Positions 13,719 to 48,453 of a DNA stretch of 64,000 bases are shown piece by piece. A model generated the notes under the pieces. It did not search any database and was not told the origin of the DNA. It saw only the letters and a list, made by a program, of their open reading frames with translations. Position numbers and translations under genes: made by a program. The stretch's first letter is position 1, and each line of letters opens with the position of its first letter. The DNA comes from Candidatus Gottesmanbacteria bacterium (GTDB taxonomy: Bacteria > Patescibacteriota > Microgenomatia > UBA10105 > UBA927). The DNA is taken from positions 1,098,053 through 1,162,052 of the forward strand of contig JAHFKK010000001.1 of assembly GCA_023245335.1 (NCBI GenBank), given 5' to 3'.

Positions 13719-14357
13719 CTATATATTTTTCAAAGCTTCAATACATTGGGCGACGGAAGCCGGATCTTTGAAAATGAAGTTTGTGGCGACCAACCTGGTG
13801 GCACCGGCATCGATCATGGATTTGGCCGTCTGATCGGTAATTCCGCCAACGACTTCGATCGGCAAATCGGGATAATTCTGCCGCAGAAGCTTCACTTTCT
13901 CTACCGCTTCAGGTAAAAACGGCTGGCCCGGCTCCCCTGCTTCTGCGCTCAAAATGACGACGAAGTCCACTTCCTCTATGAATGGCTCTATTTGATCAAT
14001 TTCCGTCGTACCGTCTATCGCAAATCCCACTTCAACTTCTTCAAATTTCGCGAGCTCCAAAAACCTCCTAGGGTCATTGGATTCTACGTGCGCGATGAGC
14101 CGGTTAAACCCCGCATCAACTAAACCCTTGATGTATTTATCGGGACTCGCGACCATGAGGTGCCCTTCAAATGAGAGATTGGGATAGCTATCTTTCAAGG
14201 CTGATAATTGTGAGAAATCCGTTATAGTGACGCCTTCCACCATAGAGCCATCCAGTAGGTCCACATGGATCCATTTGGTATAGGGTGCGGCTAGCGCGAC
14301 CTTCTGGACAAACCCTGCCCAGTCTTTCTCAAAAATACCCGGTATGACGTCTATCAT
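13719..14357 (-). CDS. rpe: Ribulose-phosphate 3-epimerase
   Basis: Rpe signature blocks (HVDLLDGSMV, GHLMV, VVGGI). Start placed at internal Met MIDVIPG (14357); the ORF track extends to 14429, overlapping rpiB. Confidence 0.85.
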   Translation of the reverse strand: MIDVIPGIFEKDWAGFVQKVALAAPYTKWIHVDLLDGSMVEGVTITDFSQLSALKDSYPNLSFEGHLMVASPDKYIKGLVDAGFNRLIAHVESNDPRRFLELAKFEEVEVGFAIDGTTEIDQIEPFIEEVDFVVILSAEAGEPGQPFLPEAVEKVKLLRQNYPDLPIEVVGGITDQTAKSMIDAGATRLVATNFIFKDPASVAQCIEALKNI

Positions 14358-14367
14358 ATAAATTATT

Positions 14368-14814
14368 TTATTTCTCCCGTGCGGCAATTTTTGCCAATCG
14401 CCGTTTGAACCGCGGTTCATGAGCGGCAAACGGGGTTGTCAAAAATGCCTGTACCCACGTCTTCGCTTCTTTCAAATCCGTGTAATCCGAAGCAATCGCC
14501 AAAACATTTGCATTATCGTGTTTTCTGTTATGAACGACATCAGGTACTCCTATTGCCGTCACGCAGCGGATACCTCGCACTTTGTTCGCGGCGATCATGA
14601 CTCCTCCCGACGACCCGCATAAGACTATTCCATAACTTCCCGGATTAGCTGCCACATGATCTGCTACTGCAAAGCTCATATCCGGAAAATCATCATCTGG
14701 GACATACGAAAACGCACCGCAATCCTCAACGTCATATTTCTCCGACACTAACCACGCCTTAAGCTCTTCCTTCAGCGCAAAGCCCCGATGATCTCCTCCG
14801 ATATACAGTTTCAT
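14368..14814 (-). CDS. rpiB: Ribose-5-phosphate isomerase B
   Basis: 148 aa; alignable to E. coli RpiB (GGDHRGF.LK, LCGSSGGVMIAANK..GIR, HNRKHDNANVLA). Confidence 0.85.
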   Translation of the reverse strand: MKLYIGGDHRGFALKEELKAWLVSEKYDVEDCGAFSYVPDDDFPDMSFAVADHVAANPGSYGIVLCGSSGGVMIAANKVRGIRCVTAIGVPDVVHNRKHDNANVLAIASDYTDLKEAKTWVQAFLTTPFAAHEPRFKRRLAKIAAREK

Positions 14815-14832
14815 CTTCGTTATGATACTAGC

Positions 14833-15567
14833 CTACTTGGTGAGCGGACAATCTGTAAAGAGGGTAACGTCATTCATGTCGAGAATTATCCGGGCCGGTA
14901 CAACGTGAACCGGAATCGAGGGATCCATCGCACGTTGAAGCATGACGGTTTTTTCCTGCCCAGAGACGTACCAGATACTCGCGGTTATGAGACCCGCAAA
15001 CGGAACAGTGGTCGTCACCCGCAGGGGATACTGATTTTTGTCGCCTGCATCGTAACCTACCACCCAATGATCCGTATGGACAAACATTCGATCAAAGGCA
15101 AGAGGATCCTCCGCATACGGTATCATGCCGAATGTATGTCCGTCGGGCCCCATGCCCACCGTTGCGATGATTTTGCCGTCCGGAAACTGTATTTTCCACT
15201 TCCTAAGTTCATGCTCAAATTTCGCGGCAAGCTTGGTGGGTGTCTCGCCGGCTGACGCCGTGGTATTGATAGAACGGGCTCCCCGCCCTATCGCTTTTTT
15301 CATAACCGGATGCATAAGAACTTTGAGATAATTACTCGCCGCCGGATCAGAAGAACAGCGCTCGTCGAGGACCGTAAACGTCACACAGGAAGAAAATACG
15401 TTTGGACGTAATGAGTCCAAAATTTTTAGAGCTGAACCGCCAGAAAACAATAATAGAATTGGGCCGTCCGCGTCCTCTAAGACTCTGGATAATGTATTTC
15501 CTGCCTGTATTGCCGCTTTCGCAGCGTTTCCAGATGTAACCACTGTCACGGGAGAGATGTCTGTCAT
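14833..15567 (-). CDS. pgl: 6-phosphogluconolactonase
   Basis: 244 aa. LFSGGSA, VLDERC..DP and GMGPDGHT motifs of the 6PGL/NagB fold; context between gnd and rpiB. Confidence 0.75.
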   Translation of the reverse strand: MTDISPVTVVTSGNAAKAAIQAGNTLSRVLEDADGPILLLFSGGSALKILDSLRPNVFSSCVTFTVLDERCSSDPAASNYLKVLMHPVMKKAIGRGARSINTTASAGETPTKLAAKFEHELRKWKIQFPDGKIIATVGMGPDGHTFGMIPYAEDPLAFDRMFVHTDHWVVGYDAGDKNQYPLRVTTTVPFAGLITASIWYVSGQEKTVMLQRAMDPSIPVHVVPARIILDMNDVTLFTDCPLTK

Positions 15568-15579
15568 ACGCTTGTCCGG

Positions 15580-16497
15580 CTATTTTTGGGTAACCTTATG
15601 TCCGCCGAATGCATTCCGTATCGCGGCAAGAAGTTTAGCGGTAAACGATTGTTGGATAATTTGATCTGTCTGACTTCGGACACGATATGCAAGCGATGCC
15701 TCTATGATGGGCACCGGTACGTTTTCAACTTTGGCCTGTTCTACCGTCCAACGCGCCTCCCCAGTCTCGGCAACCTGACCCACGACGTCATCAAGTTTTT
15801 GGTCCCGGGACAAGACGTCATCGGCGCGATCCAAAAGAAATCCTGAAACTAAGGTCCCCTTTTGCCACAAGTTGGATACCGCGGCTAAATCAAATGTATA
15901 TGGTGCATGTTTCAAGACATCGAACCCTTCCGCCAACGATTGCATGATCCCGTACTCTATGCCGTTATGGACCATTTTGACGAAGTGACCAGCTCCCCCG
16001 GCCCCAAAATATGTGTGACCCCCGTTTGGCAATGCAAGCGTATCGAGCATGGGTTTAACTGCTTCGTATGCCAAACGGTCACCGCCGACCATAAGAGGAT
16101 ATCCCTGACGCTCGGCGACTATCCCTCCGGATACCCCGATCCCCAAAAACCGCACGCTTTTCGCCGCACATGCTTCTGCATGGCGGTCGGAATCACTGAA
16201 ACGGCTATTCGCCGCGTCTATAAGGATATCTTCAGAAGATAAAGCCGGAACAACCGCCCCAAACATTTCATTCGTGGCCGATCCAGCCGGCAACATAACC
16301 CACACGATGCGTGGCGAGGGTAACGCCGTAAGGAGCGCCGTCACTTCATTATGCGCCGTTATCGTTTTCTGCTTCGTCACTAAAGCTTCAGCAACCTCCG
16401 GCGTTCTGTTCCACACATGCACCGTGTGTCCGCCTGCCGCAAGCTTAGCCGCTATGCGTGATCCCATTTTCCCCAAGCCGATAACGCCGATCGTCAT
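15580..16497 (-). CDS. gnd: 6-phosphogluconate dehydrogenase, short (about 300 aa) decarboxylating form
   Basis: GVIGLGKMGSRIAAKL Rossmann N-terminus and 6PGDH-like C-terminal domain. Start taken at MTIGVIGLG (16497); track ORF extends to 16524. Confidence 0.8.
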   Translation of the reverse strand: MTIGVIGLGKMGSRIAAKLAAGGHTVHVWNRTPEVAEALVTKQKTITAHNEVTALLTALPSPRIVWVMLPAGSATNEMFGAVVPALSSEDILIDAANSRFSDSDRHAEACAAKSVRFLGIGVSGGIVAERQGYPLMVGGDRLAYEAVKPMLDTLALPNGGHTYFGAGGAGHFVKMVHNGIEYGIMQSLAEGFDVLKHAPYTFDLAAVSNLWQKGTLVSGFLLDRADDVLSRDQKLDDVVGQVAETGEARWTVEQAKVENVPVPIIEASLAYRVRSQTDQIIQQSFTAKLLAAIRNAFGGHKVTQK

Positions 16498-16539
16498 AGA
16501 AAAAGTGTAGTCGCTCACGCACATAGACGCAAGCGTACT

Positions 16540-18006
16540 TTACCTGTCGTGCAAGTACCAAGAACGTTCATCCGTACTCAAAAGCCCGTCTGATGCATTG
16601 GGCCCCATGGTATGTGCTTCATACGGGAAAAGCGGCGGCTGACGACTTGTCCAGCCTTCAAAAATTTGCGTGCTGAAACGCCAGCTTAGATTGACTTCAC
16701 GGGTATCTGCAAATAGCGTCTGGTCTCCCCGCAGTGCGTCCAATATGAGCCGTTCATATGCCGCTTTCCTGCTTCTTCCTGGTTTTTGCATCTCTTCCAT
16801 GGCAAGTGTCTCAAGATCGAGTCCTGCTCCCGGTTTTTTACCCATGAGACGAAGCCCCACGCCGTGATCCGGGGAAATCCGTATCGCGAGAACGTTGCGC
16901 ATAACTTGAGGTTCGGGGAAGAGACAGACTGGCCCGACACATACCGCCGGCTTTTTGTAATGAAGGGAAATTTCTGCGACCGAGTTCTCCATGGATTTAC
17001 CGGTCCGAAGATAAAACGGCACCCCGTGCCATCGCGGCGTATTGAGAGAAACCTTGAGAGCCACAAACGTTTCTGTCTGGCTGTCCCGCGCGACATTCGG
17101 TTCTGACGTATACCCTTTATATTGACCCCGTACAACATTGGTGGGGACATCGTTCACACCGATCGGATTAAGAGCCATGAGCGCCTGGATACGAGCTTCC
17201 CGCAAATGCATCGAATCGAAACTAACGGGCTGTTCCATGGCGACAAATGCGAGCATCTGCAACATATGATTTTGTACGACATCCCGGAGCGCCCCCACAC
17301 CATCATAGAACGCACCGCGCGATCCTACGCCGTCTTTTTCGAGGAGTTGGATCTGTACGTGATCGATAAACTCATTGTTCCATGTCGGTTCCACGATGCC
17401 GTTTGCAAACCGCAACGCAAGTATATTCTGTACGGTTTGTTTCCCCAAATAGTGATCGATCCTATAGATCTGTTCTTCTGCAAACAGCGACGACACGACA
17501 TTTTCTAGGTGTTCGCTGGTTGCCAAGTCCCGCCCGAACGGCTTTTCGATAAGAAGCCGCGCCTGAGATTGGGTCGGGCCCGTCCGTTTGCCGACGAGTG
17601 CAGCATCTTTGAGATTCGTCAGAATGGTTTCATAATGAACGGGAGGGACGGCAAGATAGAAATAGTGTGTTGATTTGCCGCCGCGCACGGCTTCCTGTTC
17701 CTTGAGTATAGATTTCACCCGCGTATAGAGCTCTGGGTCTTCAAACATCCCGCTTTCGTAGCGCGTATGACGCATGAGGCTATCCCAAATAGACGTGGTG
17801 AATGCAGAACCGACACTTTGTATAACGGCGTCTTTGACGAATTTCTCGTACGCGGTCTCATCCATCTTCCGCCTGCCGACACACACGATAAACGGCAAAT
17901 CAAGGAGCTGCCCTTCCGCGACAAGCCAATACAACGCGGGCCAGAGTTTGTGTTGGGCAAGATCCCCGGTCGCTCCGAAAAGCACGAACGAGTTATACAT
18001 GGACAT
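16540..18006 (-). CDS. zwf: Glucose-6-phosphate 1-dehydrogenase
   Basis: 488 aa. LFGATGDLA NADP site and RIDHYLGKQ G6PD active-site signature. Confidence 0.9.
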   Translation of the reverse strand: MSMYNSFVLFGATGDLAQHKLWPALYWLVAEGQLLDLPFIVCVGRRKMDETAYEKFVKDAVIQSVGSAFTTSIWDSLMRHTRYESGMFEDPELYTRVKSILKEQEAVRGGKSTHYFYLAVPPVHYETILTNLKDAALVGKRTGPTQSQARLLIEKPFGRDLATSEHLENVVSSLFAEEQIYRIDHYLGKQTVQNILALRFANGIVEPTWNNEFIDHVQIQLLEKDGVGSRGAFYDGVGALRDVVQNHMLQMLAFVAMEQPVSFDSMHLREARIQALMALNPIGVNDVPTNVVRGQYKGYTSEPNVARDSQTETFVALKVSLNTPRWHGVPFYLRTGKSMENSVAEISLHYKKPAVCVGPVCLFPEPQVMRNVLAIRISPDHGVGLRLMGKKPGAGLDLETLAMEEMQKPGRSRKAAYERLILDALRGDQTLFADTREVNLSWRFSTQIFEGWTSRQPPLFPYEAHTMGPNASDGLLSTDERSWYLHDR

Positions 18007-18059
18007 AGTATAGAGAATACAGACGGGAAGTGCCAGTAAAATGAGTATAGAAGACGCTA

Positions 18060-18398
18060 TTATCTCGCCCGCTGAAGATCTTCGGTCAGTTGCGCGTATT
18101 TATCGTCCATTGATTTAAACACTTCATCCGTCACCAACCCCCGGCCCCATGCGACGGCAAGGTGCGTGCGTACGACCGCAACCATTCCTATAGCATCAAG
18201 GAGTACCTGACGGCCAAACCGCCGATCTGCCCGGGACAGGCCATCAGCAATCTTCGAAGCGACTGCTGTTGCCGAAGCGATACAATCTTCGACTATTTCC
18301 TCATCTGTACTTCCCCGCAGCCCGTCAAACGTATCATGGACTTCCATAAGGACGACAAATGCGTCCTGCCAGAGTTTTTGATCATGAAAATTTTGCAT
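18060..18398 (-). CDS. Four-helix-bundle protein (TIGR02436 / 23S-rRNA IVS / Avd-like family)
   Basis: 112 aa. Pattern K.LWQ.A..L..EV, A.S...KIADG, F....LLDAIG...E..T.L.VA matches the four-helix-bundle family. No reverse transcriptase nearby. Confidence 0.5.
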   Translation of the reverse strand: MQNFHDQKLWQDAFVVLMEVHDTFDGLRGSTDEEIVEDCIASATAVASKIADGLSRADRRFGRQVLLDAIGMVAVVRTHLAVAWGRGLVTDEVFKSMDDKYAQLTEDLQRAR

Positions 18399-18463
18399 AT
18401 GGTACGTATAGTACCTTGTGAGGCCAGTCAGGTCAATGAAGAGAAGAATTTACTATAGGTTTA

Positions 18464-18515
18464 TACCAGTATTTACCAATCTTTATAAAGGTTTTTACAA
18501 GTATTTACAAATGGC
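18464..18515 (-). promoter_or_regulatory. Repeated motif TTTACAAGTATTTAC / TACCAGTATTTACCAAT upstream of 18060..18398; shared with the region upstream of the HTH-Cache regulator gene
   Basis: TTACAAGTATTTAC at 18496..18509 and GTATTTACCAAT at 18469..18480 recur at 42938..42977 in a similar position relative to a minus-strand start codon. Confidence 0.35.
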
Positions 18516-20822: not shown

Positions 20823-20829
20823 ACTGGTT

Positions 20830-21033: not shown

Positions 21034-21044
21034 ACGGCAAAAAA

Positions 21045-21764: not shown

Positions 21765-21816
21765 ATGTACTGGTATATCACGGAACGGGCAATACTGACA
21801 AGCATATATCGCTTTG

Positions 21817-22767: not shown

Positions 22768-22785
22768 AATCCAATGGGTATTGTA

Positions 22786-23553: not shown

Positions 23554-23564
23554 TATATTTGTAA

Positions 23565-28220: not shown

Positions 28221-28226
28221 ACCCAT

Positions 28227-29987: not shown

Positions 29988-30039
29988 CGCGTAAAGTGTC
30001 TTGTATTCTGTCTCCTCATGCTGCATAATTTCACCCATC

Positions 30040-31332
30040 ATGAAATTCCCCGCTCACCCTATCACGCGTTGCAGAATATGCCACCATACGGGACTCCGGG
30101 AGATCCTCAGCCTGGGTAATCAGACGGTGTCAACATTTGTCGCTCCCGGCGAAACAGCTCCCGTTGCGCCGCTTACTCTCCTTCTGTGCGACCCCTCAAC
30201 CAGCGGCTGTGGACTCGTACAGCTCAAACACACCTCCCCGGCAAACTCGCTCTACCGGCACTACTGGTACAAATCCGGGGTAAACGCATCAATGAAGTCT
30301 GCTCTCCGGGATGTCGCGCAGTCCGCAGTCAAACGGCATCCGCTCCAAACCGGCGAAATTGTTCTGGATATCGGCGCGAACGACGGAACATTGCTCCGGG
30401 AATTCCGACGGAGAGACCTACGGAAAATAGCAGTGGAGCCAGCAATAAATCTTACGGGTGAACTTTCGCGTCACGCCGACACCGTCATCAACGATTTTTA
30501 TACCCACCGGGCATTTATCAAAGCTTCCAAAGGAAAAAAAGCCGCGATCATTACGACTGTAGCTATGTTTTATGACCTGGAAGACCCGAATTCTTTCGTT
30601 TCTGACCTACGTAAATCTATCGCTCGAAACGGACTTTGGGTTAATCAGATGGCTTCGCTATATGACATGGTCAAATACACAATGTTTGATAATGTATGTC
30701 ACGAACACATTGAATATTATTCGCTTGCGGCTCTAGAAAGACTACTTGCACGACACAAATTCATGGTCGTCGATCTAGAAATAAATGATGTCAACGGCGG
30801 CAGCATGCGCGTCTACGCAACGCCGGCGGCGTACGCGCACACCTATGTCACCCCCCAATCGACAATCCGTTTACGTCACTATAGAGCTTTGGAAAAAACA
30901 ATGCGCCTGGAAGACCCGCAAACCTATAGACAGTTCTCCCGCCGCGTGACCCGGTACAAACACCTCCTTCATACATTCATCGCGAAAGCCAAAACAAAAG
31001 GAAAAACCGTATGGGGGTATGGCGCATCTACGAAAGGAAACACGCTCCTGCAGTATTTTCAATTCAATGACCGCATACTCGCCGCTATTGCGGAACGCAA
31101 TCCTCTTAAATGGGGACGTGTTACCGCCGGCACCCGCATCCCCATCGTTTCGGAATCAGCCATGCGCAAAGCCAAACCGACGTATCTTCTCATCCTACCC
31201 TGGCATTTCCGCCCGGAATTTATACGACGGGAACAAGCATATCTACGAGGCGGCGGTACGATGATCTTCCCGCTTCCCCGGCTGTCACTCGTCACTATGA
31301 AACACGGGAAACTTCATACGACGTATCTCTAA
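30040..31332 (+). CDS. SAM-dependent sugar C-methyltransferase family protein (Zn-ribbon + MTase + C-methyltransferase C-terminal domain)
   Basis: N-terminal Cys4 (CRIC...CDPSTSGC), SAM motif I (VLDIGANDGTLL) and a C-terminal YGASTKGNTLLQYF block typical of NDP-hexose C-methyltransferases (TylC3-like). ATG 30040 preferred over track TTG 30001. Confidence 0.65.
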   Translation: MKFPAHPITRCRICHHTGLREILSLGNQTVSTFVAPGETAPVAPLTLLLCDPSTSGCGLVQLKHTSPANSLYRHYWYKSGVNASMKSALRDVAQSAVKRHPLQTGEIVLDIGANDGTLLREFRRRDLRKIAVEPAINLTGELSRHADTVINDFYTHRAFIKASKGKKAAIITTVAMFYDLEDPNSFVSDLRKSIARNGLWVNQMASLYDMVKYTMFDNVCHEHIEYYSLAALERLLARHKFMVVDLEINDVNGGSMRVYATPAAYAHTYVTPQSTIRLRHYRALEKTMRLEDPQTYRQFSRRVTRYKHLLHTFIAKAKTKGKTVWGYGASTKGNTLLQYFQFNDRILAAIAERNPLKWGRVTAGTRIPIVSESAMRKAKPTYLLILPWHFRPEFIRREQAYLRGGGTMIFPLPRLSLVTMKHGKLHTTYL

Positions 31333-31344
31333 GAATCCCGTCCG

Positions 31345-34300
31345 TTATGGCGTCGGACTCGGGGCTGAAGTCGGCGCCGGGCTTGGTGATATGGTCGGCG
31401 CAGGAGAAAGTGTCGGTGTATCTGTTGGCGCAGGAGTTATCGTATCAGTGATGACGGGAGTGGGCGTCACGGTGGGTTGTATCGAACCCGTCGGTACCGG
31501 TGACACTTGCACGCTACCGCCTAGAGGAATACTTGTCGGAGCTGGGACAGACGGGTTGACGGTCGGAGACGGGGTCGGCGCAACCGTCGACGAACCCGCA
31601 ACCGTGCCCGTCGCCTCCTCCTGACCGGAAGTGAATGTCTTCGCGCTGTCAACGGCAATAGCCGTCCAGGAGAACGTGAGGTCTACCGGTGTATCTTTAT
31701 CCAAAAGAATCATGAATCCCTGGGTCGATTGCCCCGTAACCGCCACGTGGACGTTACTCGTAAATACCGTGTTGACGACCGTCTGATGACATTCATCCAG
31801 CGTCGCATCGGGCGCACAAATACCGTCAGTCATATATTGATGATATTTGTCCGTGGAAAGCGCCGGTATGACGATGGTTGCGTTCACAATCGGCGTCTGG
31901 TCATACGCGGACTGGAACGTAATATCCACAAAGCGCTTTCCCTTTTCGATGACCGCATATCCTGCAGCATCCTGGTTGAATTTCACATTTCCGCGGAAGC
32001 TTACTTTGCCGGAATAAATGACGTCTTTCAAATATTCCACCACATCATGGAACCGTACATGCGCCAGAAATTCTACCTGACCTTTAAAGAGTGCTTGTCC
32101 CAGGGAGACCAGCATCTTATCGACGGTGATCCCCTGTCCGAAGTCAGCCAGTTTATCCAGAATTGATTGCTGTACTTGGGCCGTTTCCGTTGCCTGTCCC
32201 GCGAGAAGTCCTGAGTCTGTCGCGATGGTGAGTTCGCTCAACGCATCCGCGGTATGAGCGATCGTGACTTCGCGCGGTTGTTCCAAAAGTGCCGTATCCT
32301 GTTGGTCCCCGAGATAATAGCCGATATTCACGTTCACGAGGAGTTTCGTTTCATCCGCGGGGGCTGCCGGATCATATGCTTCGGCTGCAGTTCCCAATAT
32401 TTTCCCCGGCTTCGTCGCCTTCATCGCAACCCCGGCAACACCGGAAGATGTGATGGGATCACCGATTTTGATCGCTCCGCCGGTACCGTTTACGCGCGTC
32501 TCTACCCGTCCGCTCAATGCGACGGGCCAGGTCATCGAACTCGATGCGCCGATCGTGAGTCCGGGATCAGCAGAGGCGACGCCCAGGAGCTTACGGTCAT
32601 ACGGGATCGCTGACAGCGTCGCTTCGCCGGTCGTATCGGAAATTGCAAGCACTTGCCCGTCGGGTATATCCGCATCTGTGTTTACATAATAATGTTCTGC
32701 GACATCAGCACCCGCGATGGGATCGGGCCGAAGTGATGCAGCCGGCGTCTCTTGGGAACCTCCCTGCTGTACGAGCGGTGAAGCGCCGTTCTGAATCGGA
32801 TCATCCTGAACGAACGCAAACAAATCTACGTTTGCCGTCCACGGGAAACCGTTTGAAACGGCACCGCCCGCGGCACCTACCTGCGCTTGCCCGACGTTTA
32901 TGGCCGGCCCTAAGTTAAATGTAGGAATGGCATTGGCGTTGGTGGCATTACCACAATAGGTCATGCTGATGCCGTCGGACATATTGTTGTCGACAAAAAA
33001 CCGGATATCATTGGTTGCCCTCGCTTCTATCCTTAGAAGGGCAAACGCGTTAGTTTTGATATTTTGGCCGGCACATTGGACCACCTGGTTATTGGATGCC
33101 GTGCCCATACGGACGTTTCCTGCCCATTGCTGACCCAATCCCGTCGCATTGGCGGAATCACCGTTAAAGAACATAATGGCGCCGGAATTTGGCTGCGTCC
33201 AGGGAATCGTATACTGCCATCCCTGGGAATAATTGTTCGCACCGAAGTACATATTTTTGATGGAGGACATTGCGGTAAATCCGGGTGACGGCATGACTTT
33301 CCAGTACATCACCCATTTATTCGCGATATTGAGTATGGCCGCCGTTGCTGCCCCGGTACCACTACCCATATGTAACCGACACTCGCCGCCTTTGTAACCT
33401 GTATCGGTGAGACTCGTACCATTAGAGCTTGTTTGGGTATCCGGTGAAAGTTCCAAAAGCCCCATACTGCCATTCGTTAAAGCTGATCTTGCCTCGTTTC
33501 CAGTGCAGCCGATAGAACCGGAACTCAAACTTCCGAGTGTGAGCGTCCCGCCTTCATCAAATACCCAGCCATACTGATCACCGAACCTGCCGGTAGCGGT
33601 CTGATCTGCTGTTGCTTGCGCTACGTTTCTATTGAAATTGTCCATATAGAAACTTCCGTCGATGTTGATAAATCCGCCTGATTCCGTCACCCCGTATCCT
33701 TCTCCGGTGAAGTATTCTTTGAGTGACGCGAGTGTCGTGCCTGACGCACTTTGATAACTGAGTGCGCTGCCGTCGGCGAGTTGTATGACGGGTGCGGTAT
33801 TCGTGAATTGGATATCTCTGTCGTAACCTGTGCCAATTTTCAGCGCGACCTCTGTCGCGTTTGCCTGCCCGGTAACATTTCCTATGGATATTGCTTCCAG
33901 TGTTCGGCCCGCAGTATTGTCATTTGAAGTGAGGTTTACACGAAGTCCTGCGTTATCAACGGTAGAACTGCCGCCGTTTGCAAAATCTATCTGTAAACCG
34001 TCTACGCCTGCTGTCGCTGCACCCTGACTGGTACCGGTATTGAGGATATTCATCATATCCACAGTGGGTGCAGTAGAGGTTGCCATCGTAACCTGGAATT
34101 GTGTCCCGGTCGTATCCTGAAAAATGATACTGCCATTGGTTCCTGTCATAAGCACGGTTTGATCACCCGCAGATCCCGTCGTGTAGGCTTGTTGCAACGT
34201 CCCGCCCCCACCGCCGCCTGTTCCCGTAGCCCCGGTGGGACCGATAGGACCGGTAGTTCCCTGAAGTCCCGTCGGGCCGGTTGTACCTGTCGGGCCGGTC

Positions 34301-37300
34301 ACTGCCGCCCCGACGTCTCCCGTGCTTCCTGTTGCGCCGGTCGGGCCGTTGGTCTGACCAGTCGGACCAGTCGGACCAGTCGGACCGTTATTACCGGTTG
34401 TACCGGTTACTCCTGTCGGACCGTTTGCTCCGGCACCGCCATTACCTCCGGTTGCACCGGTTGAACCAGTGGGACCGGCATTACCAGTAACGCCTGTTGA
34501 ACCTGTAGGACCGGCATTACCGGTTGCGCCCGTACTTCCCGTTGGCCCGGAAGAACCTTGTGTTCCGGTAGATCCTGTGGAACCGGTTGGTCCGGATGAA
34601 CCTGCAGTCCCGTTAGCTCCGGTAGAACCCGTCGGCCCCGTAGGACCATTATTTCCTGTTGCTCCGGTCGAGCCAGTTGGTCCAGCATTTCCAGTAGTAC
34701 CGGTTGAGCCAGTGGGACCTGAAGTTCCTTGAGTTCCGGTCGCACCGGTTGAGCCGGTAGGACCACTTGACCCTTGAGCTCCTGTTGCTCCGGTAGAACC
34801 CGTCGGCCCCGTAGGACCATTATTTCCTGTTGCTCCGGTCGAGCCCGTTGATCCCGTTGGTCCGTTATTTCCGGTAGACCCGGTGGAACCAGTGGGACCG
34901 TTTGCGCCGTTTGCCCCAGCTCCGCCAGCGGTACCCGTAGCACCTGTTGAGCCGGTTGGACCGCTCGAACCCTGTGTACCTGTAGCCCCGGTCGACCCGG
35001 TGGAACCAGTGGGACCGTTGTTCCCGGTTACACCAGTTGAACCAGTGGGACCGGCATTGCCAGTTGTTCCTGTTGTCCCTGTCGGACCACCTGCGCCTTG
35101 TGTGCCTGTTGCACCCGTCGAGCCGGTGGGGCCGGAAGATCCTTGTGTCCCGGTCGCACCTGTTGAGCCGGTACTACCGCTCGGACCGTTGTTTCCCGTT
35201 GTTCCAGTTGAACCAGTCGGCCCATTATTTCCAGTAGATCCTGTTGAACCAGTTGGGCCGGAACCGCCACCCGCTCCGGTTGCACCGGTACTGCCTGTCG
35301 GTCCTGACGAACCTTGTATTCCCGTCGCACCAGTAGAACCAGTGCTTCCCGTGGGGCCGTTATTTCCTGTTATACCTGTGGATCCGGTCGGACCCGCGTT
35401 TCCTGTGGCTCCTGAGGAACCGGTCGGGCCGGAAGATCCTTGCGTCCCGGTTGCACCGGTAGAACCTGTGGGACCGGAAGATCCCTGTACACCAGTTGCT
35501 CCGGTAGAGCCTGTTGAACCCGTAGGACCATTGTTTCCTGTGGCACCCGTACTCCCGGTGGGGCCGGCGTTACCAGTGGAACCGGTGCTTCCCGTTGGGC
35601 CGGAAGATCCTTGTGTCCCGGTCGCACCCGTACTCCCGGTCGGACCAACATTTCCAGTTATTCCCGTACTTCCTGTCGGACCAACATTTCCTGTTGACCC
35701 AGTTGATCCAGTCGGTCCGGAACCACCAGCTGCTCCGGTAACACCAGTTGAGCCAGTAGGACCGGAAAATCCTTGCGTACCTGTAGCCCCGGTCGATCCG
35801 GTAGATCCTGTGGGACCGGCATTACCCGTGGATCCTGTTGAACCAGTCGGACCGGCATTACCCGTGGATCCTGTTGAACCAGTCGGACCGTTTGATCCTT
35901 GTGTTCCGGTTGAACCAGTACTACCAGTGGGCCCGGATGAGCCTTGAGTACCTGTTGCACCTGTCGATCCCGTATTACCCGTCGGACCAGCATTTCCTGT
36001 TGCACCCGTTGAACCGGTGGGGCCGTTATTTCCTGTTGACCCCGTACTCCCGGTCGGACCTGAGCTTCCGCCTGCACCTGTCGCACCTGTTGATCCGGTA
36101 GGCCCGGATGAGCCTTGAGTACCTGTTGCTCCGGTTGATCCTGTGCTACCAGTTGGTCCATTGTTTCCCGTTGTACCAGTTGACCCCGTGGGTCCATTGT
36201 TTCCCGTTGCTCCCGTACTTCCGGTTGGACCGGAACTTCCTCCCGTGCCGGTAGATCCTGTTGATCCCGTTGGGCCAGACGAACCTTGAGTTCCTGTTGC
36301 TCCTGTGGAACCGGTGGGGCCACCGTTACCTGTTGTTCCTGTTGATCCAGTCGGACCGTTGGATCCTTGTGTTCCCGTTGAACCGGTTGAGCCAGTCGGA
36401 CCACTTGACCCTTGGGCGCCCGTCGCACCGGTTGAGCCTGTGCTACCAGTTGGCCCGGCGTTTCCTGTGGCCCCTGTTGAACCCGTTGGGCCGGTCGGAC
36501 CATTGTTTCCTGTTGTTCCCGTAGAACCAGTCGGACCTGCATTTCCGGTCGTACCAGTTGATCCGGTGGGACCGCTTGAACCTTGAACTCCTGTCGTTCC
36601 AGTTGAACCCGTTGATCCAGTGGGCCCGTTATTTCCAGTTGAACCCGTACTTCCTGTAGGACCGGCATTACCGGTAGTACCTGTTGAACCCGTGGGACCA
36701 GATCCGCCACCAGCACCTGTCGCACCAGTTGATCCTGTAGGACCGGAAGAACCTTGGGTACCAGTTGCGCCCGTTGATCCCGTAGAACCTGTCGGGCCAT
36801 TTATTCCAGTAGTTCCAGTGGAACCGGTCGGTCCGTTATTGCCTGTTGTTCCTGTTGATCCAGTCGGACCGTTGGATCCTTGTGTTCCCGTTGACCCGGT
36901 ACTACCAGTCGGACCACTTGACCCTTGGGCGCCCGTCGCACCGGTTGAGCCGGTAGAACCTGTCGGGCCTACATTTCCAGTCGCTCCGGTTGACCCCGTG
37001 GGCCCATTATTTCCCGTTGCACCAGTTGATCCGGTGGGACCGGATGAACCTTGTGTTCCGGTAGCTCCTGTGGAACCGGTGGGACCCGATGAACCTTGTG
37101 TTCCTGTTGATCCTGTAGAACCGGTTGTACCGGTGGGACCATTGTTTCCTGTTGGTCCAGTTGAGCCAGTAGGACCGGCATTACCGGTAGAACCTGTGGA
37201 ACCCGTGGGGCCAGATCCGCCACCAGCACCTGTCGCACCCGTTGATCCCGTTGGGCCGGAAGATCCCTGTGTCCCTGTTGCACCCGTTGATCCCGTAGAA

Positions 37301-40300
37301 CCTGTGGGGCCTGCATTTCCTGTTGTCCCCGTAGAACCAGTCGGACCGGCGTTTCCCGTTGATCCCGTACTTCCGGTTGGACCGGAAGAACCTTGAGTTC
37401 CCGTTGACCCAGTACTACCCGTCGGACCACTTGACCCTTGGGCGCCCGTCGCTCCGGTTGATCCTGTAGAACCTGTGGGGCCTGCATTTCCTGTAGCTCC
37501 TGTTGATCCCGTTGGCCCATTATTTCCGGTAGCTCCGGTTGATCCGCTGGGACCATTTACCCCAGCTCCACCGGCTGTTCCGGTAGCTCCGGTTGATCCC
37601 GTTGGGCCAGACGAACCTTGCGTTCCTGTTGCACCCGTTGATCCCGTAGAACCTGTCGGGCCATTGTTTCCTGTTGACCCGGTGGAACCGGTCGGGCCAT
37701 TGTTTCCGGTTGCGCCCGTTACACCTGTTGGGCCACCTGCACCTTGTGTCCCTGTTACACCTGTGGAACCGGTGGGACCGGAAGATCCCTGTGTCCCTGT
37801 TGCACCGGTACTTCCGGTTGTACCGGTGGGACCATTGTTTCCCGTTACACCAGTAGACCCCGTGGGTCCATTGTTTCCTGTAGAACCTGTGGAACCAGTT
37901 GCTCCGTTTGCTCCGGCATTCCCGGCTGTTCCTGTCGCACCAGTTGATCCCGTTGGGCCAGACGAACCTTGCGTTCCTGTTGCACCCGTGGAACCGGTAC
38001 TTCCGGTGGGACCAACGTTTCCTGTTGTTCCAGTTGAACCAGTCGGACCATTGTTTCCAGTTGATCCCGTACTTCCGGTTGGACCGGAAGATCCTTGCGT
38101 CCCTGTTGCTCCTGTGGAACCGGTGGGACCCGATGAACCTTGCGTTCCTGTTGCACCCGTTGATCCCGTAGAACCTGTGGGGCCTGCATTTCCTGTTGTC
38201 CCTGTTGAGCCGGTAGGACCATTGTTGCCGGTTACTCCTGTGCTTCCCGTCGGACCATTGGATCCTTGTGTTCCCGTTGACCCGGTACTACCCGTCGGAC
38301 CACTTGACCCTTGGGCGCCCGTTGCACCTGTGGGACCAGCATTTCCTGTTGTTCCAGTTGAGCCGGTCGGACCATTGTTGCCAGTTGCGCCAGTACTTCC
38401 GGTTGGACCGGAAGATCCTTGCGTCCCTGTTGCTCCTGTGGAACCGGTGGGACCCGATGAACCTTGCGTTCCTGTTGCACCCGTGGAACCGGTTGGACCG
38501 ACGTTACCGGTTATTCCTGTTGATCCTGTCGGACCGTTATTACCTGTCGTTCCTGTAGATCCTGTCGGACCGGAAAAACCTTGAGCTCCTGTTGCTCCAG
38601 TTGATCCCGTTGATCCGGTCGGACCATTGTTTCCTGTTGAACCAGAACTTCCTGTAGGACCGGCATTACCGGTAGTACCTGTTGAACCCGTGGGGCCGGA
38701 TCCACCACCAGCACCTGTCGCGCCAGTTGAACCAGTAGGACCAGAAGATCCTTGGGTACCCGTTGCTCCTGTGGAACCAGTTGTTCCGGTCGGACCAGCG
38801 TTTCCGGTAGCTCCGGTAGAACCGGTCGGACCAGCGTTTCCAGTTGTTCCAGTTGAGCCTGTTGCTCCATTGGCTCCATTTGCGCCGGCAGTCCCGGCAG
38901 TTCCCGTAGCGCCGGTGGAACCGGTGGGACCAGATGAACCTTGAATTCCTGTTGATCCCGTACTTCCTGTCGGACCGTTTGTACCGGTAGTTCCAGTAGA
39001 ACCGGTCGGTCCTGCATTTCCGCTCGGGCCTGTTGCTCCCGTCGGGCCGGCTGCACCGGCTGCACCACCCTGTGATCCGGTCGGTCCTGTTGCCCCAGTA
39101 GGACCACCTTCGCCGGTAACCCCTGTTGATCCAGTACTTCCAGTCGCGCCCGTGGAACCACTCGTCCCTACTCCACCGGTTGCACCGGTGGAACCGGTCG
39201 GACCGCTTACTCCTTGAATACCTGTTGCTCCTGTAGAACCGGTTGGACCGGCATTGCCGGTAGATCCCGTACTACCAGTTGGACCTGAGGAACCTGCAGA
39301 TCCAGTTGCGCCACTTGACCCAGTCGGACCATTATTTCCTGTAGATCCGGTAGAACCGGTCGGACCCGCATTCCCTGTAGGCCCTGTCGATCCGGTTGGT
39401 CCATTCCCACCATTTGCACCTGTTGCACCTGTACTACCAGTTGGACCTGAGGAACCTGCAGATCCAGTTGCGCCACTTGACCCAGTCGGACCGGCGATAC
39501 CTGTTATACCTGTGGCTCCGGTAGGACCACTCGTCCCTATTCCACCGGTTGCACCGGTAGAACCGGTCGGACCGCCGATTCCGGTGGCGCCCGTAACACC
39601 GGTTGATCCTGTAGGTCCAACTATACCTGTCGCTCCTGTTGAACCGGTAGGTCCGTTTGACCCGCCTCCGCCACCCCCGCTACCGGTACCGGTAGCTCCG
39701 GTGGGACCTATGGGACCGAGTTCTCCGGTAGATCCCGCTGTCCCGACACCAGTTGCCCCGGTTGCCCCGTCTACACCAATAGTGCCGTTCGTTCCGTTCG
39801 TCCCATTAGAGCCATTTGCTCCCGCATCTCCTTTCTCTCCCTGGGGGCCACTGACTCCTGTAGCTCCTGTTGCGCCAGTTTCCCCAATACCTCCGAATGT
39901 GCCGCCGGAATAAAGCGTAGCGCTGCCGGTTTGCAATCCTGTGTTGTTCTGCTGTTGAGTCGTATTGAAGTTGTTGACTGTGGTAAATTGCGGGCTAAGT
40001 TGTTGTGTCGCGGTGGGTGAAGAAGTAACTGATGTAGAACCTATCCTAATGATACCTTGTGCATCAAAACGTTGCACGGTCAATCCAATTGTTGGCAAGT
40101 TTGGTGCCAATATCTGAGGTGATGATCCAAAAGAACCCGCATCTGTCGAAACTCCTAATACGCTCGTGTCGTTATTCGATACGACAACCATCTTGAGTGT
40201 TTCACGGCTTATGAGTGTTGAGACGGCATCCAGAGATTGTAAGGTCGGCTGAATAGAAAGCGACAGCATGGCGTTATTGGCACTTCTATCTCCCGTAATG

Positions 40301-40905
40301 CGGCTGTGTTGAATATCAGTTATAGCCGAAAAATTACTAATGAGTTTGTCGCCTGCTACCGTCGCATCTGTATAATGAACCGGAAGTATGGAACCATCCG
40401 GTAATGTTATACCGGCCACGAGATGCTCTAGAATCTTTGCCTGATTTCCTGCCCCTTGTTTTGAGATAAAAAGCGGTATCACACCGTTCGCATCTTCAGA
40501 CACGGTCCCGCTGTCGCCGTTTGCATACTGGAGAGTAATATCACCGATAAACTTGCCATTCTGAAGTAGTGCTTCATGAACAAACGCATACGAATAAGAG
40601 CCATCCGGTAGCTGGACAATAAGGAGAAGCGGTCCGTTCCAATCGCTTTTCATGAGAAGATCACTCGTAAGTTGTGGTATTTCCGGGGTCGTCGGCGGTT
40701 GGGGAGACGTAGTAGTCGTATTTTTCGCTACGTTCAAACCGCGGATGGCCGAATATGTGCCCCACGCCAAAGTTGTCAGAATAGCCCCAACGAGGAAAAT
40801 AAGAAAGTACTGGACAAACCCAGCCTCAGATTGTGCATGACGACTGTTAATATGTGCACTCCATACAGAATGACAAAATCCGCTTGAGGCGGATCTTTGG
40901 TGCAT
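31345..40905 (-). CDS. Giant (~3,190 aa) N-terminally anchored surface protein with ~1,900-residue Thr-rich collagen-like (G-X-Y) repeat region, ~950-aa C-terminal globular region and Pro/Thr/Ser-rich tail
   Basis: Single uninterrupted minus-strand ORF (track 31345..41091; start set at the Met just downstream of the upstream gene stop). N-terminal TM ([21 protein letters not shown]); ~300-aa N domain. Then continuous GXY triplets dominated by [13 protein letters not shown] / GTQGSSG units with no Pro at Y positions. A non-repetitive C-terminal region follows, ending [22 protein letters not shown]...[12 protein letters not shown]. Confidence 0.85.
34200..39900 (-). repeat. Collagen-like coding repeat array (about 5.7 kb of degenerate 9-nt/45-nt/171-nt periodic GGx-CCx-ACx units)
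   Basis: Visible as GGACC/GTTGGACC/CCGGT periodicity on the + strand. Protein-level superunit of about 57 aa ([57 protein letters not shown]). Generates long spurious ORFs in other frames and on the opposite strand. Confidence 0.9.
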
Positions 40906-40928
40906 AGCGGGACGCCATTTTTTGTCTT

Positions 40929-42890
40929 TCACGGCGATCCCCCTCCCACAACCTTTGGACGTACATACAAATAATAAAAAGCACTCGTACCAAGGGTAAG
41001 AACTACAAGTATTATGGCAAAGAGCGAAATGACCGAGGCTGTATTGATCATCACTACCGAACCAATCGGTATGCGCAAACTCAAACTCCAACCTAAATTG
41101 GGCACGATATTATACCCATCTACTCCCATGTGATCATTAAAAACTATGCTTTCGCTGGCATGAGGAGTCGTATCATTCAAATACAAACGCATTGGATCAT
41201 CCTTCGGAAGCTCTTTACCGACCATCGCCATATTGCTACTTATGACGTATTGCCCTTTACGATCAACTATCGTGAACCCTTCGCCTCTCGTTTGATCTGC
41301 TATCTGCTGCACCTCCAAATTAAGTTGATTTATGTCTATAGATCCAGCCAAAACGCCCACAAAATCATTTTTGGTGGAAATAAGCGGCACGGAGACCGTA
41401 ACTACTTGTCGGTGGGAGTTATCAGCAAGGGCCTCAAAAACACCGGATACGTATGGCTTTCTCGTATTCCGGGCAGCGATAAAATAATCACGGAATGATA
41501 AATTGGATTGATCAAACGTCCCATACGGGTACAAGGCGACTCCTTTTCCTTCCGCATCCAGTATGATGATACGGCGAAGATAAGAATGGCTTTCATACAG
41601 CACTTTTGCGTACTTATCGATTGTCGTAAAATCTTTCTTCCCCACGGCAACAACAAGGTCTTGATTTACAGCAGCCGTCGCAAGGACTGCCTGTGCCGTA
41701 TCAAATGCATCCTGCACGAGCCTTTGGGCAATGATCATTTTATTATGCAATTCGACCTGCTTTTGATTCCATAGCGTCTGCTGAAGTTCATACACCGCGA
41801 ATATGGAAGCGAGTATGACGACGCTCACTAAGCCCAAAAAGATATGAAGAATTGTTTTATCACGCCGCGAATCATGCCCACGGATCAACATAGACCATAA
41901 CGGCACAACGAGGCTGAAAAATCCCAAAACGACAAAGTACATAGCCCTGCTCCAATACTCCATGTTGGCGTACCAAAGGGCCGCCACGAAACAAAAACAC
42001 ATAGTTACCCAGGCGCCAATTCGAAACCATACGGAACCCGTCCGATAACCGCGCCAAAAAAGGAACAAATTGGTTCCCGCGACACCGGTGAGCAAGAGAG
42101 CCACTGCATAATTGGGAAGGGAAAATAAGCTGGTGAACATCTGCACATGCCCGACATTGGCGCCCAAAAATAACAGCGTCACTACACCTGTTAAAAGAAG
42201 GTCGAGATACAAAAGATAGGAAATAATACCGTCAACATCAAATATCGCGTTATATAAAACGACAATTCCCATGGTGCCGTATAGGATAGCGCCATCAAAA
42301 TCCTGAACATTTATAAAAGGCATCACGCTGCCAAACGCAAGAAGTGCAAGTAATCCAAAAAATACACTCCGCCACTTCCGCATTCCCTGAAATATGTTAA
42401 TCGTGACAATGCCGGCGCCTATGGCTATGAGGGCAACGCGTGCAGTAATAAGATATGCCGACAACGAGGCGTCACCTGCGGTGTTTGTTAGATTGAACAA
42501 AAACAAACTCGCCCCGGATACGATAGCGCCTAGTCCTACCAACCAATCAAAAATATTTGGTGCGGCTACCAGATTCCAGTCATGCTTTTTAGTCCATCGG
42601 GTAATATGAGAAATTAATGCTGATTGGGATATTTCATTGCCAGCAGACACAGGCGGGGTGCTTGGAGCAACTACGGTTTGGACTTTTCCTGCTGTTTCTA
42701 CCGGCCGCTTTGAGAGGTGTAATATACGAGCAAGTTCTTCTTCCGGGATACGGAATCTCCCCTTCCCCAAACGGACTCCTCTGATGCGCTTTTCTTTGAG
42801 GAACGCATAGATGCTATTGGTAGAATAGCCTAATATATCCGCGACTTCTTTGACAGTATAGTTCTTCGGCATGCTCGGGCAGCTTGTCAT
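40929..42890 (-). CDS. Membrane-bound one-component regulator: N-terminal HTH (excisionase/MerR-like) + polytopic TM region + extracytoplasmic Cache domain + C-terminal TM
   Basis: 653 aa. N-terminus [43 protein letters not shown] (HTH_17-like); about 8 TM helices; a Cache-type sensor block ([58 protein letters not shown]); a final TM. No kinase or other output domain. Confidence 0.6.
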
Positions 42891-42937
42891 ACTCCACCCA
42901 AACTTTGGAGTATTCGGATGCTCTAATTAACAAATTA

Positions 42938-42977
42938 TTACAAGTATTTACCTATCTATTTACAAGTCTTTACCAAT
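42938..42977 (-). promoter_or_regulatory. Tandem motif TTACAAGTATTTACC ... TTTACAAGTCTTTACCAAT upstream of the HTH-Cache gene (shared with 18464..18515)
   Basis: Two copies about 21 bp apart, 50-90 bp upstream of the minus-strand start at 42890. Confidence 0.35.
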
Positions 42978-43053
42978 TCTTATTATTAATTGTGAAACCC
43001 TATAAATACTATGCACTAAGATTTCACGGGTTGTCAAGTCTGCAATTAATCAT

Positions 43054-43145
43054 ATCGTAATCTTATCGTTATGCTGCATATTTACCGCATATACGTGCTA
43101 TATACTTAAGTACCAATAAATTGACGTTTGTGATAAGATTACGAT
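43054..43145. repeat. 14-bp perfect inverted repeat ATCGTAATCTTATC / GATAAGATTACGAT separated by 64 bp, upstream of 43162
   Basis: Read directly in the divergent intergenic region between the regulator gene and the Fic-like gene. Confidence 0.4.
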
Positions 43146-43161
43146 AAGAACTGCTTCACTT

Positions 43162-44103
43162 ATGATTTCTATTTCGTATACCATCACCCCGACTATCACT
43201 GACCATCTGATCGCTATAGACGCACACCGACGAACAATCCTGACAACGCCTCTTTCTCCTCGGAACGAACAACGGCTTCACTGGGATTCGATCATAGGGC
43301 ATATAACCGCTTCTCTCGCCCTCGCAAATACCACCATTCCGAAATCACAGATCGTCACTATACTCACGCACCCTTCCAAACACCCGACGGCCACAGAACA
43401 ATTAGTACTTTCCTATAAACGTGCACTGGACTGGCTGCATGAGGAGTGGTCCGCGAACCCAAAGACGATCACATTTCCGGTGGTCGAGACACTGGCTTCC
43501 ATCGCACTCCCGGCTCATTCTGCCCGCGCGGCTCTCCGAGATGATGAAGAAAATATCCGGCACTTACTGACCTATCTGCAGTCCCAATCAGACCATCCCA
43601 TCCTGGTCGCCGGTCTCGCACATGGTCAAATTGCCTCTTCCTCAAACCGCAATCTATCCAGTGGTCTCATTTGTCGGCTTACCACAGCGCTTATTCTTGC
43701 CAAATACGGGTACGATTGCCGTGGGATGCTTGCTATAGACCCGTTTTGGACCGAAAACCGCGAACGATATGATCGGGCACTCGAAAGCATTAACCGGCTC
43801 GGACAACTCACCGCGTGGCTTGAGTATTTTACGGGTGTCGCACAGGAAGCTTATGACGGTCTTGCCGAGGAAATATCCCATGCGGCCGCTCACCTACCCA
43901 TTTCAACCTGGCTACTCGCACCGAGGGAAGATCAAATCATGCATCGCCTGGATTCCCCGACCAGCCGCATTACCAACCGTGACGTCCAGCGCTCATTCCA
44001 TATCTCCCAGGTAACCGCCAGCCGTGTCCTTACCAGACTCGTTTCCTTGGGACTTTTGTTTGCGCATGGCAAAGGAAGAAGCGTATATTACACGAAAGCC
44101 TAG
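43162..44103 (+). CDS. Fic/DOC-fold-like protein with degenerate active-site motif and C-terminal winged-helix
   Basis: 313 aa. The region AHGQIASSSNRNLSSGLICRLTTALILAKYGYD resembles the Fic core (HPFxDGNGR..R......L...GY) but lacks the canonical motif. C-terminus RVLTRLVSLGLLFAHGKGRSVYY is winged-helix-like. Confidence 0.3.
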   Translation: MISISYTITPTITDHLIAIDAHRRTILTTPLSPRNEQRLHWDSIIGHITASLALANTTIPKSQIVTILTHPSKHPTATEQLVLSYKRALDWLHEEWSANPKTITFPVVETLASIALPAHSARAALRDDEENIRHLLTYLQSQSDHPILVAGLAHGQIASSSNRNLSSGLICRLTTALILAKYGYDCRGMLAIDPFWTENRERYDRALESINRLGQLTAWLEYFTGVAQEAYDGLAEEISHAAAHLPISTWLLAPREDQIMHRLDSPTSRITNRDVQRSFHISQVTASRVLTRLVSLGLLFAHGKGRSVYYTKA

Positions 44104-48027: not shown

Positions 48028-48453
48028 ATGCCGGAAGTTACGCCAAAGACATGCCTCATTATAGAAAACGAAAGCCACTACCGGCAGGATCTGGCATACG
48101 AACTCAGAAGGAACGGTTGGCGCGTATTGGGTCACGCCGACAGGATGCCGGATGCATTGGAGCTTGCCCGACAAGTCTCTAGAGGGACCTATGGACCTAT
48201 AGACGTCATATTCATGGATGGAAATTTGACAAAAGGAGATACATCAGGAAAAAACGGCTGGGAGCTCTCCGCGCTATTTGAGCAAAAAACACGCCATGGA
48301 ACCTTCATTCTTCCGTTCACACGAACACCGGAAAACGCTGCCTGGGCTGATTCTCCCGCAAACAAAGACCCGAAAGTTATCGTCAGACAGGCTGATGCAT
48401 TACTCCTGGGAGAACTCCCGACTCGGGACGTTTTTGATGTAATTAAGAAATAA
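48028..48453 (+). CDS. Stand-alone receiver (REC)-like domain protein
   Basis: 141 aa. CLIIENE (beta1 acidic cluster), IDVIFMDGNL (putative phospho-acceptor Asp), downstream Thr/Lys positions. Confidence 0.4.
   Translation: MPEVTPKTCLIIENESHYRQDLAYELRRNGWRVLGHADRMPDALELARQVSRGTYGPIDVIFMDGNLTKGDTSGKNGWELSALFEQKTRHGTFILPFTRTPENAAWADSPANKDPKVIVRQADALLLGELPTRDVFDVIKK

Follow-up and report, generated by a model that had tools for sequence, protein, structure and literature searches.

Phased direct-repeat arrays as candidate operators of a predicted membrane-bound HTH-Cache protein in Patescibacteria

Overview

The window, that is, the whole stretch of 64,000 nucleotides that was analysed, contains two arrays of direct repeats on the gene strand, in which the core T(T/G)GTAAA recurs about every 10.7 bp. 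One array lies in the predicted leader of a gene for an HTH-Cache protein (site A), the other upstream of a gene for a four-helix-bundle (4HB) protein (site B). These arrays are probably operators of the HTH-Cache protein, which would then be a membrane-tethered, BldC/Xis-like one-component regulator that controls its own gene. The original prediction had named this protein as a possible binder, and it emerges here as the best candidate, as judged from sequence: arrays of the same kind lie beside its homologues in about 50 loci, independent of other neighbours. To our knowledge, very little work has been done on gene regulation in candidate-phyla-radiation bacteria, and a literature search found no description of the HTH_17-9TM-dCache-TM architecture or of the array motif. 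The features discussed below are collected in Table 1.

Table 1. Features of the window and additional arrays in related loci, with coordinates in the window or in the named locus
Feature	Position	Strand	Remarks
rpe	13719-14429	-	Pfam; one short ORF between pgl and rpe
pgl	14833-15567	-	named from translation
gnd	15580-16524	-	named from translation
zwf	16540-18006	-	named from translation
4HB gene	18060-18398	-	Pfam PF05635
Predicted 4HB promoter	18408..18436	-	TTGACC, 17-nt spacer, TACTAT; ends 9 nt before ATG 18398
Site B array	18450..18512	-	six phased units, two of them degenerate; 25 nt upstream of the 4HB promoter -35
Small HTH_17/MerR protein gene	9058-9258	+	66 aa; BldC-like by motif (LLTVREVAKILRVSPLTIKRW) and Pfam; beside galT in relatives
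Giant collagen-repeat surface protein gene	31345..40908 (ORF called to 41091)	-	Pfam Collagen match
Hairpin ATCCGC-ctcaa-GCGGAT + TTTT	40874-40894	-	about 35 nt after the HTH-Cache stop codon; same place in relatives
Candidate regulator (HTH-Cache) gene	40929..42872 (ORF called to 42890)	-	Pfam HTH_17 and dCache_1
Site A array	42927..42977	-	five phased direct repeats in the predicted HTH-Cache gene leader
Predicted sigma-70 promoter, HTH-Cache gene	43008..43037	-	promoter scan and homologous loci
Divergent 313-aa gene	43162-44103	+	no Pfam match; winged-helix-like C-terminus
Convergent-spacer array, L046	8592-8620
Convergent-spacer array, L048	638-666
Convergent-spacer array, L049	2308-2346
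Convergent-spacer array, L065	3081-3108
Convergent-spacer array, L106	236-274
Convergent-spacer array, L115	142-180

Repeat Arrays in the Window

With up to three mismatches, the 19-mer TTTACAAGTMTTTACCAAT has exactly four matches in the window, all on the forward strand (18462, 18494, 42937 and 42959) and confined to 18462-18512 and 42937-42977. None was found in 100 dinucleotide shuffles of the window, which sets the expectation at 0. The 12-mer core gives five matches against 0.3 expected, namely the four places of the 19-mer and one intragenic near-match. The original prediction of a motif shared by two distant minus-strand gene starts is thus borne out, and the distances to the start codons that it gave hold at both sites.

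Read on the gene strand, each 19-mer consists of two GTAAA-type cores 10 bp apart, and both sites extend beyond the feature first noted, to five units at site A and six at site B. The strict core T[TG]GTA[ACT][AT] forms 8 phased pairs in the window, all of them at these two sites, whereas 200 shuffles gave 0.6 on average and 4 at most. The consensus of the arrays may be written as about AACTTGTAAAAAC, with the core and the 10-11 bp period named above. The repeats are direct and non-palindromic, and the number of units varies from 2 to 6 among loci. The earlier description of two half-sites for a dimeric regulator is not supported, because the repeats are non-palindromic; the sites consist of four to six direct repeats in a phase of about 10.7 bp, in varying number. 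Its more general proposal, that the motif is a regulator-binding element rather than a low-complexity word, is supported. A search with Rfam 15 at the gathering score returned two tRNAs as the sole matches in the window and no family on the arrays.

At site A, the units on the gene strand are TGGTAAA, TTGTAAA, AGGTAAA, TTGTAAT and TTGTTAA, with spacings of 10, 12, 10 and 10 and with cores at 42969, 42959, 42947, 42937 and 42927 (forward-strand coordinates). They lie 47-87 nt upstream of ATG 42890 and 65-105 nt from ATG 42872. The latter is probably the start of the HTH-Cache protein (MPKNYTV...), because ATG 42890 reads ATA in the closely related locus L130. ATG 42890 also falls within a conserved leader hairpin (AATACTCC...GGAGTAT).

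The predicted promoter, from which the putative transcription start of the gene was placed, precedes the array and consists of TTGACA (43037-43032), an 18-nt spacer and CATAGT (43013-43008). In the alignment of the closest relatives this promoter is invariant, and the array is kept unit by unit (L130-L132, L051, L093 and L102). In L130, a block of 13 nt, or about one turn, has been lost, which cuts a spacing of 22 nt to 11 nt.

Two further repeats were observed in this region. A GTGAAA...TTTCAC inverted repeat (42992-43002 / 43017-43027) brackets the predicted -10 element CATAGT and is conserved in the closest clade (L130, L131, L051, L093 and L102); its form suggests a third, palindrome-binding regulator at the HTH-Cache promoter. 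The divergent promoter region also contains an 18-nt inverted repeat, TCATATCGTAATCTTATC / GATAAGATTACGATAAGA (43050-43067 / 43132-43149), which is 94% complementary and belongs to a GATAAGA/TTATCA-type motif. This motif is present only in those related loci that retain the divergent 313-aa gene and disappears along with it; the repeat is probably the operator of the 313-aa protein.

Arrays in Related Patescibacteria

Judged by its ribosomal protein genes, its other gene content and the names of its homologues, the window belongs to the Patescibacteria (CPR), probably close to Gottesmanbacteria. More than 120 HTH-Cache homologues share both Pfam domains, and all of those listed carry PF12728. 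Homologous loci were taken from a metagenome scan, which gave 75 loci, and from one Gottesmanbacteria genome. The comparison set comprised 50 non-redundant loci, whose proteins are 25-57% identical to that of the window. The common leader layout in these 50 loci consists of a TTGACA-N17/18-CATAGT promoter, a T(T/G)GTA(A/C)A array on the coding strand, a ribosome-binding site and the ATG. The distance from TTGACA to CATAGT or a similar -10-like hexamer ranges from 15 to 21 nt and is mostly 17-18 nt. Each leader contains on average 2.62 cores on the coding strand, compared with 0.46 on the other strand and 0.22 in the background. An unbiased count of 6-mers gave 89 occurrences of TTGTAA against 1.9 expected (47-fold), distributed over 45 of the 50 leaders.

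The spacing of the cores is as regular as their sequence. Core-to-core distances in the 50 leaders peak at 10, 22, 32 and 43 bp, and the offset of the first core from the -10 element is likewise phased, at 10, 21, 32 and 41. Such periodicity is a property of duplex DNA, and it therefore points to a protein that recognises one face of the helix. On a larger scale, 522 kb of sequence from 66 loci contain 49 arrays of at least three phased cores, against none in reversed-sequence controls. The leader holds 26 of these arrays, the region just downstream of the regulator gene 13, and the remaining 10 lie mostly within about 1.5 kb of that gene. The order promoter, array, gene is identical in all 66 loci, with an inverted variant in none, and the arrays accompany the HTH-Cache gene with or without the divergent wHTH gene.

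Reference genomes were scanned with the pattern GTAAANACTNGTA-N5-32-GTAAANACTNGTA. Among the 43 stretches obtained, the majority of those inspected appear to be tandem repeats of an unrelated kind (Caldilineaceae, Lachnospiraceae, Companilactobacillus and others), and an HTH homologue is encoded at one only (L042, Gottesmanbacteria RBG_16_52_11). Similar TTGTAAA(N)ACTTGTAAA tandem arrays with no HTH-Cache-type HTH gene nearby were seen in a Streptococcus, a gammaproteobacterium, a Tissierella, a member of the Ruminococcaceae and an actinomycete (L020, L023, L026, L032 and L036). In these unrelated bacteria the arrays may be iterons or the sites of other proteins. In three related loci (L091, L110 and L111), an ORF of 93 aa lies between the array and the HTH-Cache gene (about 850-1130 in L091). 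By eye its product looks like a GIY-YIG nuclease, and the arrangement resembles a homing-endonuclease insertion.

The giant ORF directly downstream of the regulator gene has 3248 codons, and the N-terminal domain of its product is, by eye, common to the downstream genes of homologous loci. In many relatives, a hairpin with a T-run follows the stop codon of the regulator gene, and a reverse-oriented array then stands just before the giant gene. At least 13 loci have a forward array before the regulator gene and a reverse array after it; in L064 the two arrays are direct, not inverted. The spacer between the regulator and giant genes of the window (about 20 nt) contains the hairpin and no second array. 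Since the hairpin lies inside the giant ORF as called from its start, either that start is wrong or the hairpin is an intercistronic attenuator.

Extra arrays also occur in the convergent spacer between glgA and the divergent wHTH gene (Table 1), with an orientation that differs between clades and no evident gene start beside them. In L046, such an array is followed by a 38-codon ORF with a ribosome-binding site. The occurrence of arrays in both orientations and in convergent spacers goes unexplained by a simple operator model.

The HTH-Cache Protein and Other Candidate Binders

The gene annotations in the original prediction hold at the level of Pfam: HTH_17 and dCache_1 in the regulator, PF05635 in the 4HB protein and collagen repeats in the giant protein. 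The HTH-Cache protein is 647-653 aa long and consists, in order, of an N-terminal HTH_17 winged helix, a disordered linker, nine predicted transmembrane helices, the dCache_1 domain and a tenth transmembrane helix. HTH_17 (PF12728) matches residues 11-57 with 38 bits against a gathering cut-off of 27. Hydropathy and the positive-inside pattern place the HTH domain in the cytoplasm and the Cache domain outside, in agreement with the full-length AlphaFold2 model, whose pLDDT is 85.7.

The AlphaFold2 model of the HTH domain has a pLDDT of 88.9. In Foldseek comparisons it matches the BldC-DNA complexes 6ama and 6amk with a TM-score of 0.82-0.83 (rmsd 1.2-1.4 A over 50-51 residues) and the Xis protein of mycobacteriophage Pukovnik (4j2n) with a TM-score of 0.76. 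Sequence searches of the PDB with the HTH domain, using a single sequence as well as a profile, also recovered Xis 4j2n. BldC was absent from the results of both searches, so the link to BldC comes from the fold search only. The recognition helix, STNSIY, is (nearly) invariant in the family, and so is the TTGTA core of the repeats, whose variants include TTGTAAA, TTGTACA and TTGTGAA. This joint invariance is consistent with binding of the arrays by the HTH-Cache protein. The recognition helix STNSIY recurs in a 171-aa paralogue that lacks a Cache domain and has two membrane helices; the gene of this paralogue carries a GGTAAA array after a TTGACA promoter.

The arrays could instead be the operators of some other protein, either a small HTH_17/MerR protein or a response regulator of the OmpR/PhoB type, a class whose sites are likewise direct repeats with a period of 10-11 bp; the HTH-Cache gene would then be just a conserved target. 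This explanation is unlikely, though it has points in its favour. Helically spaced direct repeats are typical of response regulators and of BldC, and the gene of a small, BldC-like HTH_17/MerR protein (Table 1) is syntenic in L121, L123-L126 and L129. The arrays, however, go with HTH-Cache genes in about 50 loci, as well as with the short paralogue that shares the recognition helix, and the small HTH_17 gene has no array upstream. Neither the reviewed ORFs of the window nor the gene tables of the related loci include a DNA-binding response regulator; the sole receiver-like ORF (48028-48453) lacks both a Pfam match and an output domain. The pattern TGTAAA-N4-TGTAAA resembles TGTWAH-N5-TGTWAH, which we take to be the form of WalR-type boxes, but the spacer here is N4, not N5. 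As a separate observation, a TTATCCAC word that resembles a DnaA box occurs at about 8910, upstream of the small HTH_17 gene.

Alternative Roles of the Repeats

A different possibility is that the repeats act in RNA, either as a UUGUAAA leader recognised by an RNA-binding protein or occluding the ribosome-binding site, or through long-range pairing between the leader and the intercistronic region. Site A and most homologous arrays do lie downstream of the predicted transcription start and reach the Shine-Dalgarno sequence, the leader folds modestly better than shuffled sequences (z = -2.6), and the reverse arrays after the gene would be complementary to the leader arrays. Nevertheless, an RNA role is improbable. 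The spacings are multiples of 10.7 nt in phase with the -10 element, which is a feature of duplex DNA, and site B lies upstream of its own promoter. The arrays occur in either orientation relative to transcription, and they match no Rfam family. Complementarity between leader and downstream arrays averages 14.75 within loci and 14.98 between loci. Long-range RNA pairing and recombination-type inverted repeats were both rejected on this ground, the within-locus value not exceeding the between-locus value.

The original prediction had also considered an extended promoter. In this explanation the repeats would be promoter architecture, with TTGTAA and TGTAAT acting as -35/-10-like hexamers, or phased A-tracts that bend the DNA in the manner of an UP element. 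TTGTAA resembles TTGACA, the family consensus is A-rich, and the promoter scan does report TTGGTA-16-TATAGT within site B and TTTACA-16-TATTAT on the opposite strand of site A. Against this, both sites have a separate and far better conserved promoter, which precedes the array at site A and follows it at site B. Loci also differ in unit number, from 2 to 6, and arrays are seen in both orientations. The extended-promoter proposal fails, and the explanation as a whole has only a slim chance of being correct. The curved-DNA variant was rejected: AAAAAA is not enriched in the 50 leaders in which TTGTAA is enriched 47-fold, and the window sites hold only AAA runs.

It is very improbable that the arrays are recombination or architectural sites, with inverted pairs marking an invertible or mobile segment. 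In favour of such a role, HTH_17 is the family of the excisionases, a phage Xis is the best match in sequence and structure, and forward and reverse arrays flank the regulator gene in at least 13 loci. Against it, no recombinase gene was found among the window ORFs that were reviewed or in gene tables for the related loci, none of the 66 loci shows an inverted variant, and the arrays of L064 are direct. Two arrays from one locus resemble each other no more than arrays from separate loci do. In addition, the locus lies in syntenic chromosomal DNA beside genes for ribosomal proteins.

Site B and the Genes Downstream of It

The units of site B are TTGTAAA, TTGTAAA, TTTATAA, TGGTAAA, TGGTATA and ATAGTAA, at a spacing of 10-11, with cores at 18504, 18494, 18483, 18472, 18462 and about 18450. 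They lie 64-114 nt upstream of ATG 18398. The 4HB protein is 60-91% identical in many Patescibacteria and thus far more conserved than the neighbouring regulator. Nine loci (L121-L129) were fetched for six close 4HB orthologues. All have a TTGACC-N17-TACTAT-type promoter that ends 7-10 nt before the ATG, and the leaderless-type layout of the window promoter is conserved in the orthologous loci L123, L125, L127 and L128. An array upstream of the 4HB gene is absent in all nine. The alignment with L127 shows site B within about 85-90 bp of inserted DNA, located between the preceding gene's stop codon and the conserved -35 element. As far as these alignments show, site B is a lineage-specific insertion upstream of a conserved promoter. 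Its function rests on its likeness to site A, because it has no counterpart in the relatives examined.

In relatives, the genes follow the order HTH-Cache gene, giant gene, gene of about 240 aa, gene of about 136 aa, 4HB gene and rpe, and continue to the ribosomal protein cluster. This order indicates that the 4HB gene belonged ancestrally to the string that contains the HTH-Cache and giant genes. The window keeps the overall order with two differences. First, about 12 kb (about 19146-31332) with genes for a carbamoyltransferase, a glycosyltransferase and membrane proteins separate the giant gene from the gene of 138 aa. Second, compared with L121-L129, zwf, gnd and pgl (14833-18006) are inserted between the 4HB gene and rpe. 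From strand and spacing, we infer that the minus-strand genes at 13719..18398 form one operon. Within the 12-kb segment, the stretch at 21045-22770, between the carbamoyltransferase and glycosyltransferase genes, contains only overlapping, odd-looking ORFs and no Rfam match; it may be a disrupted gene or non-coding DNA.

The link between the 4HB gene and the fibre operon that was part of the original prediction is plausible, in that the 4HB gene comes right after the giant gene in the string of relatives. The array at site B is specific to the lineage of the window, with none in the nine loci. It may be speculated that this array restored co-regulation after the rearrangement.

Proposed Model

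In the model inferred for the array binder, its head-to-tail mode, the transcription starts and the direction of regulation, the N-terminal HTH_17 domain of the HTH-Cache protein would bind the repeats, with several copies arranged head-to-tail on one face of the DNA. With the ligand-binding Cache domain outside the cell and the HTH domain in the cytoplasm, the protein would act as a one-component sensor-regulator. Because site A follows closely on a conserved sigma-70 promoter, its occupancy would be expected to hinder initiation or early elongation and thereby cause autorepression; the giant collagen-like surface protein, whose gene would be co-transcribed, would come under the same control. 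Through site B, 25 bp ahead of the -35 element, the 4HB/pentose-phosphate operon would likewise be subject to this regulator. One point that counts against the model is the assembly of four to six HTH domains of a polytopic membrane protein on one DNA array.

A broader proposal can be put forward tentatively, with somewhat less than even confidence. The HTH-Cache proteins, found here only in Patescibacteria, would form a family of membrane-tethered, filament-forming BldC/Xis-like factors. These would connect an extracellular Cache ligand sensor directly to the expression of a giant, collagen-like surface protein, probably one of host contact, and in the lineage of the window also to the oxidative pentose-phosphate operon, by means of flanking arrays that may loop or coat the DNA.

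If this broader proposal is correct, the circuit would be among the first in these uncultured episymbionts to be readable from sequence from sensor to operator. The regulator-array pair would extend the direct-repeat binding mode of BldC and Xis to a membrane-anchored sensor. It is connected with a giant surface protein, which may serve in contact with hosts or surfaces. It also offers a concrete, testable combination, a domain of about 60 residues and a DNA array of 40-60 bp, which can be studied in vitro and requires no culturing. Should the HTH-Cache protein not bind, the arrays would still be a strongly conserved, unexplained element.

Comparison with Known Systems

The closest structural parallel is BldC of Streptomyces, a member of the MerR-like family, with which the modelled HTH domain shares a small winged-helix fold. 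BldC multimers assemble head-to-tail on direct repeats, the number of which varies, and sites in either orientation are used (PMC5859096). If the arrays are indeed the sites of the HTH-Cache protein, they resemble BldC sites in having direct repeats about one turn apart, in varying number (2-6) and in either orientation. The differences are equally clear. BldC is a free protein of 68 residues, whereas the HTH domain described here heads a polytopic membrane protein of 647-653 aa with a Cache sensor, and the sequence identity of the HTH domain is only about 22%. The BldC repeat is AATTNNNN(C) at 9 bp (PMC5859096), in contrast to T(T/G)GTAAA at 10-11 bp. By analogy with BldC, the HTH-Cache protein may bind its arrays in a head-to-tail assembly.

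The second parallel is provided by excisionases of the HTH_17 type, such as Pukovnik Xis (4j2n), the best sequence and Foldseek match, and Apl of phage 186. Recombination directionality factors recognise direct repeats spaced by one helical turn, as in the arrays, and Apl doubles as a transcriptional regulator (PMC7498355). Unlike the excisionases, the HTH-Cache protein is membrane-anchored and encoded in a syntenic chromosomal block, with no integrase, attachment site or mobile element here.

In its predicted arrangement, with a DNA-binding domain at the cytoplasmic N-terminus, a membrane anchor and an external sensor, the HTH-Cache protein resembles ToxR, TcpP and CadC. Regulators of this type also bind direct repeats near their target promoters. 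They differ, however, in having an OmpR-type winged helix and one membrane helix, whereas the protein described here has an HTH_17 domain (not Trans_reg_C), ten predicted membrane helices and a dCache_1 domain.
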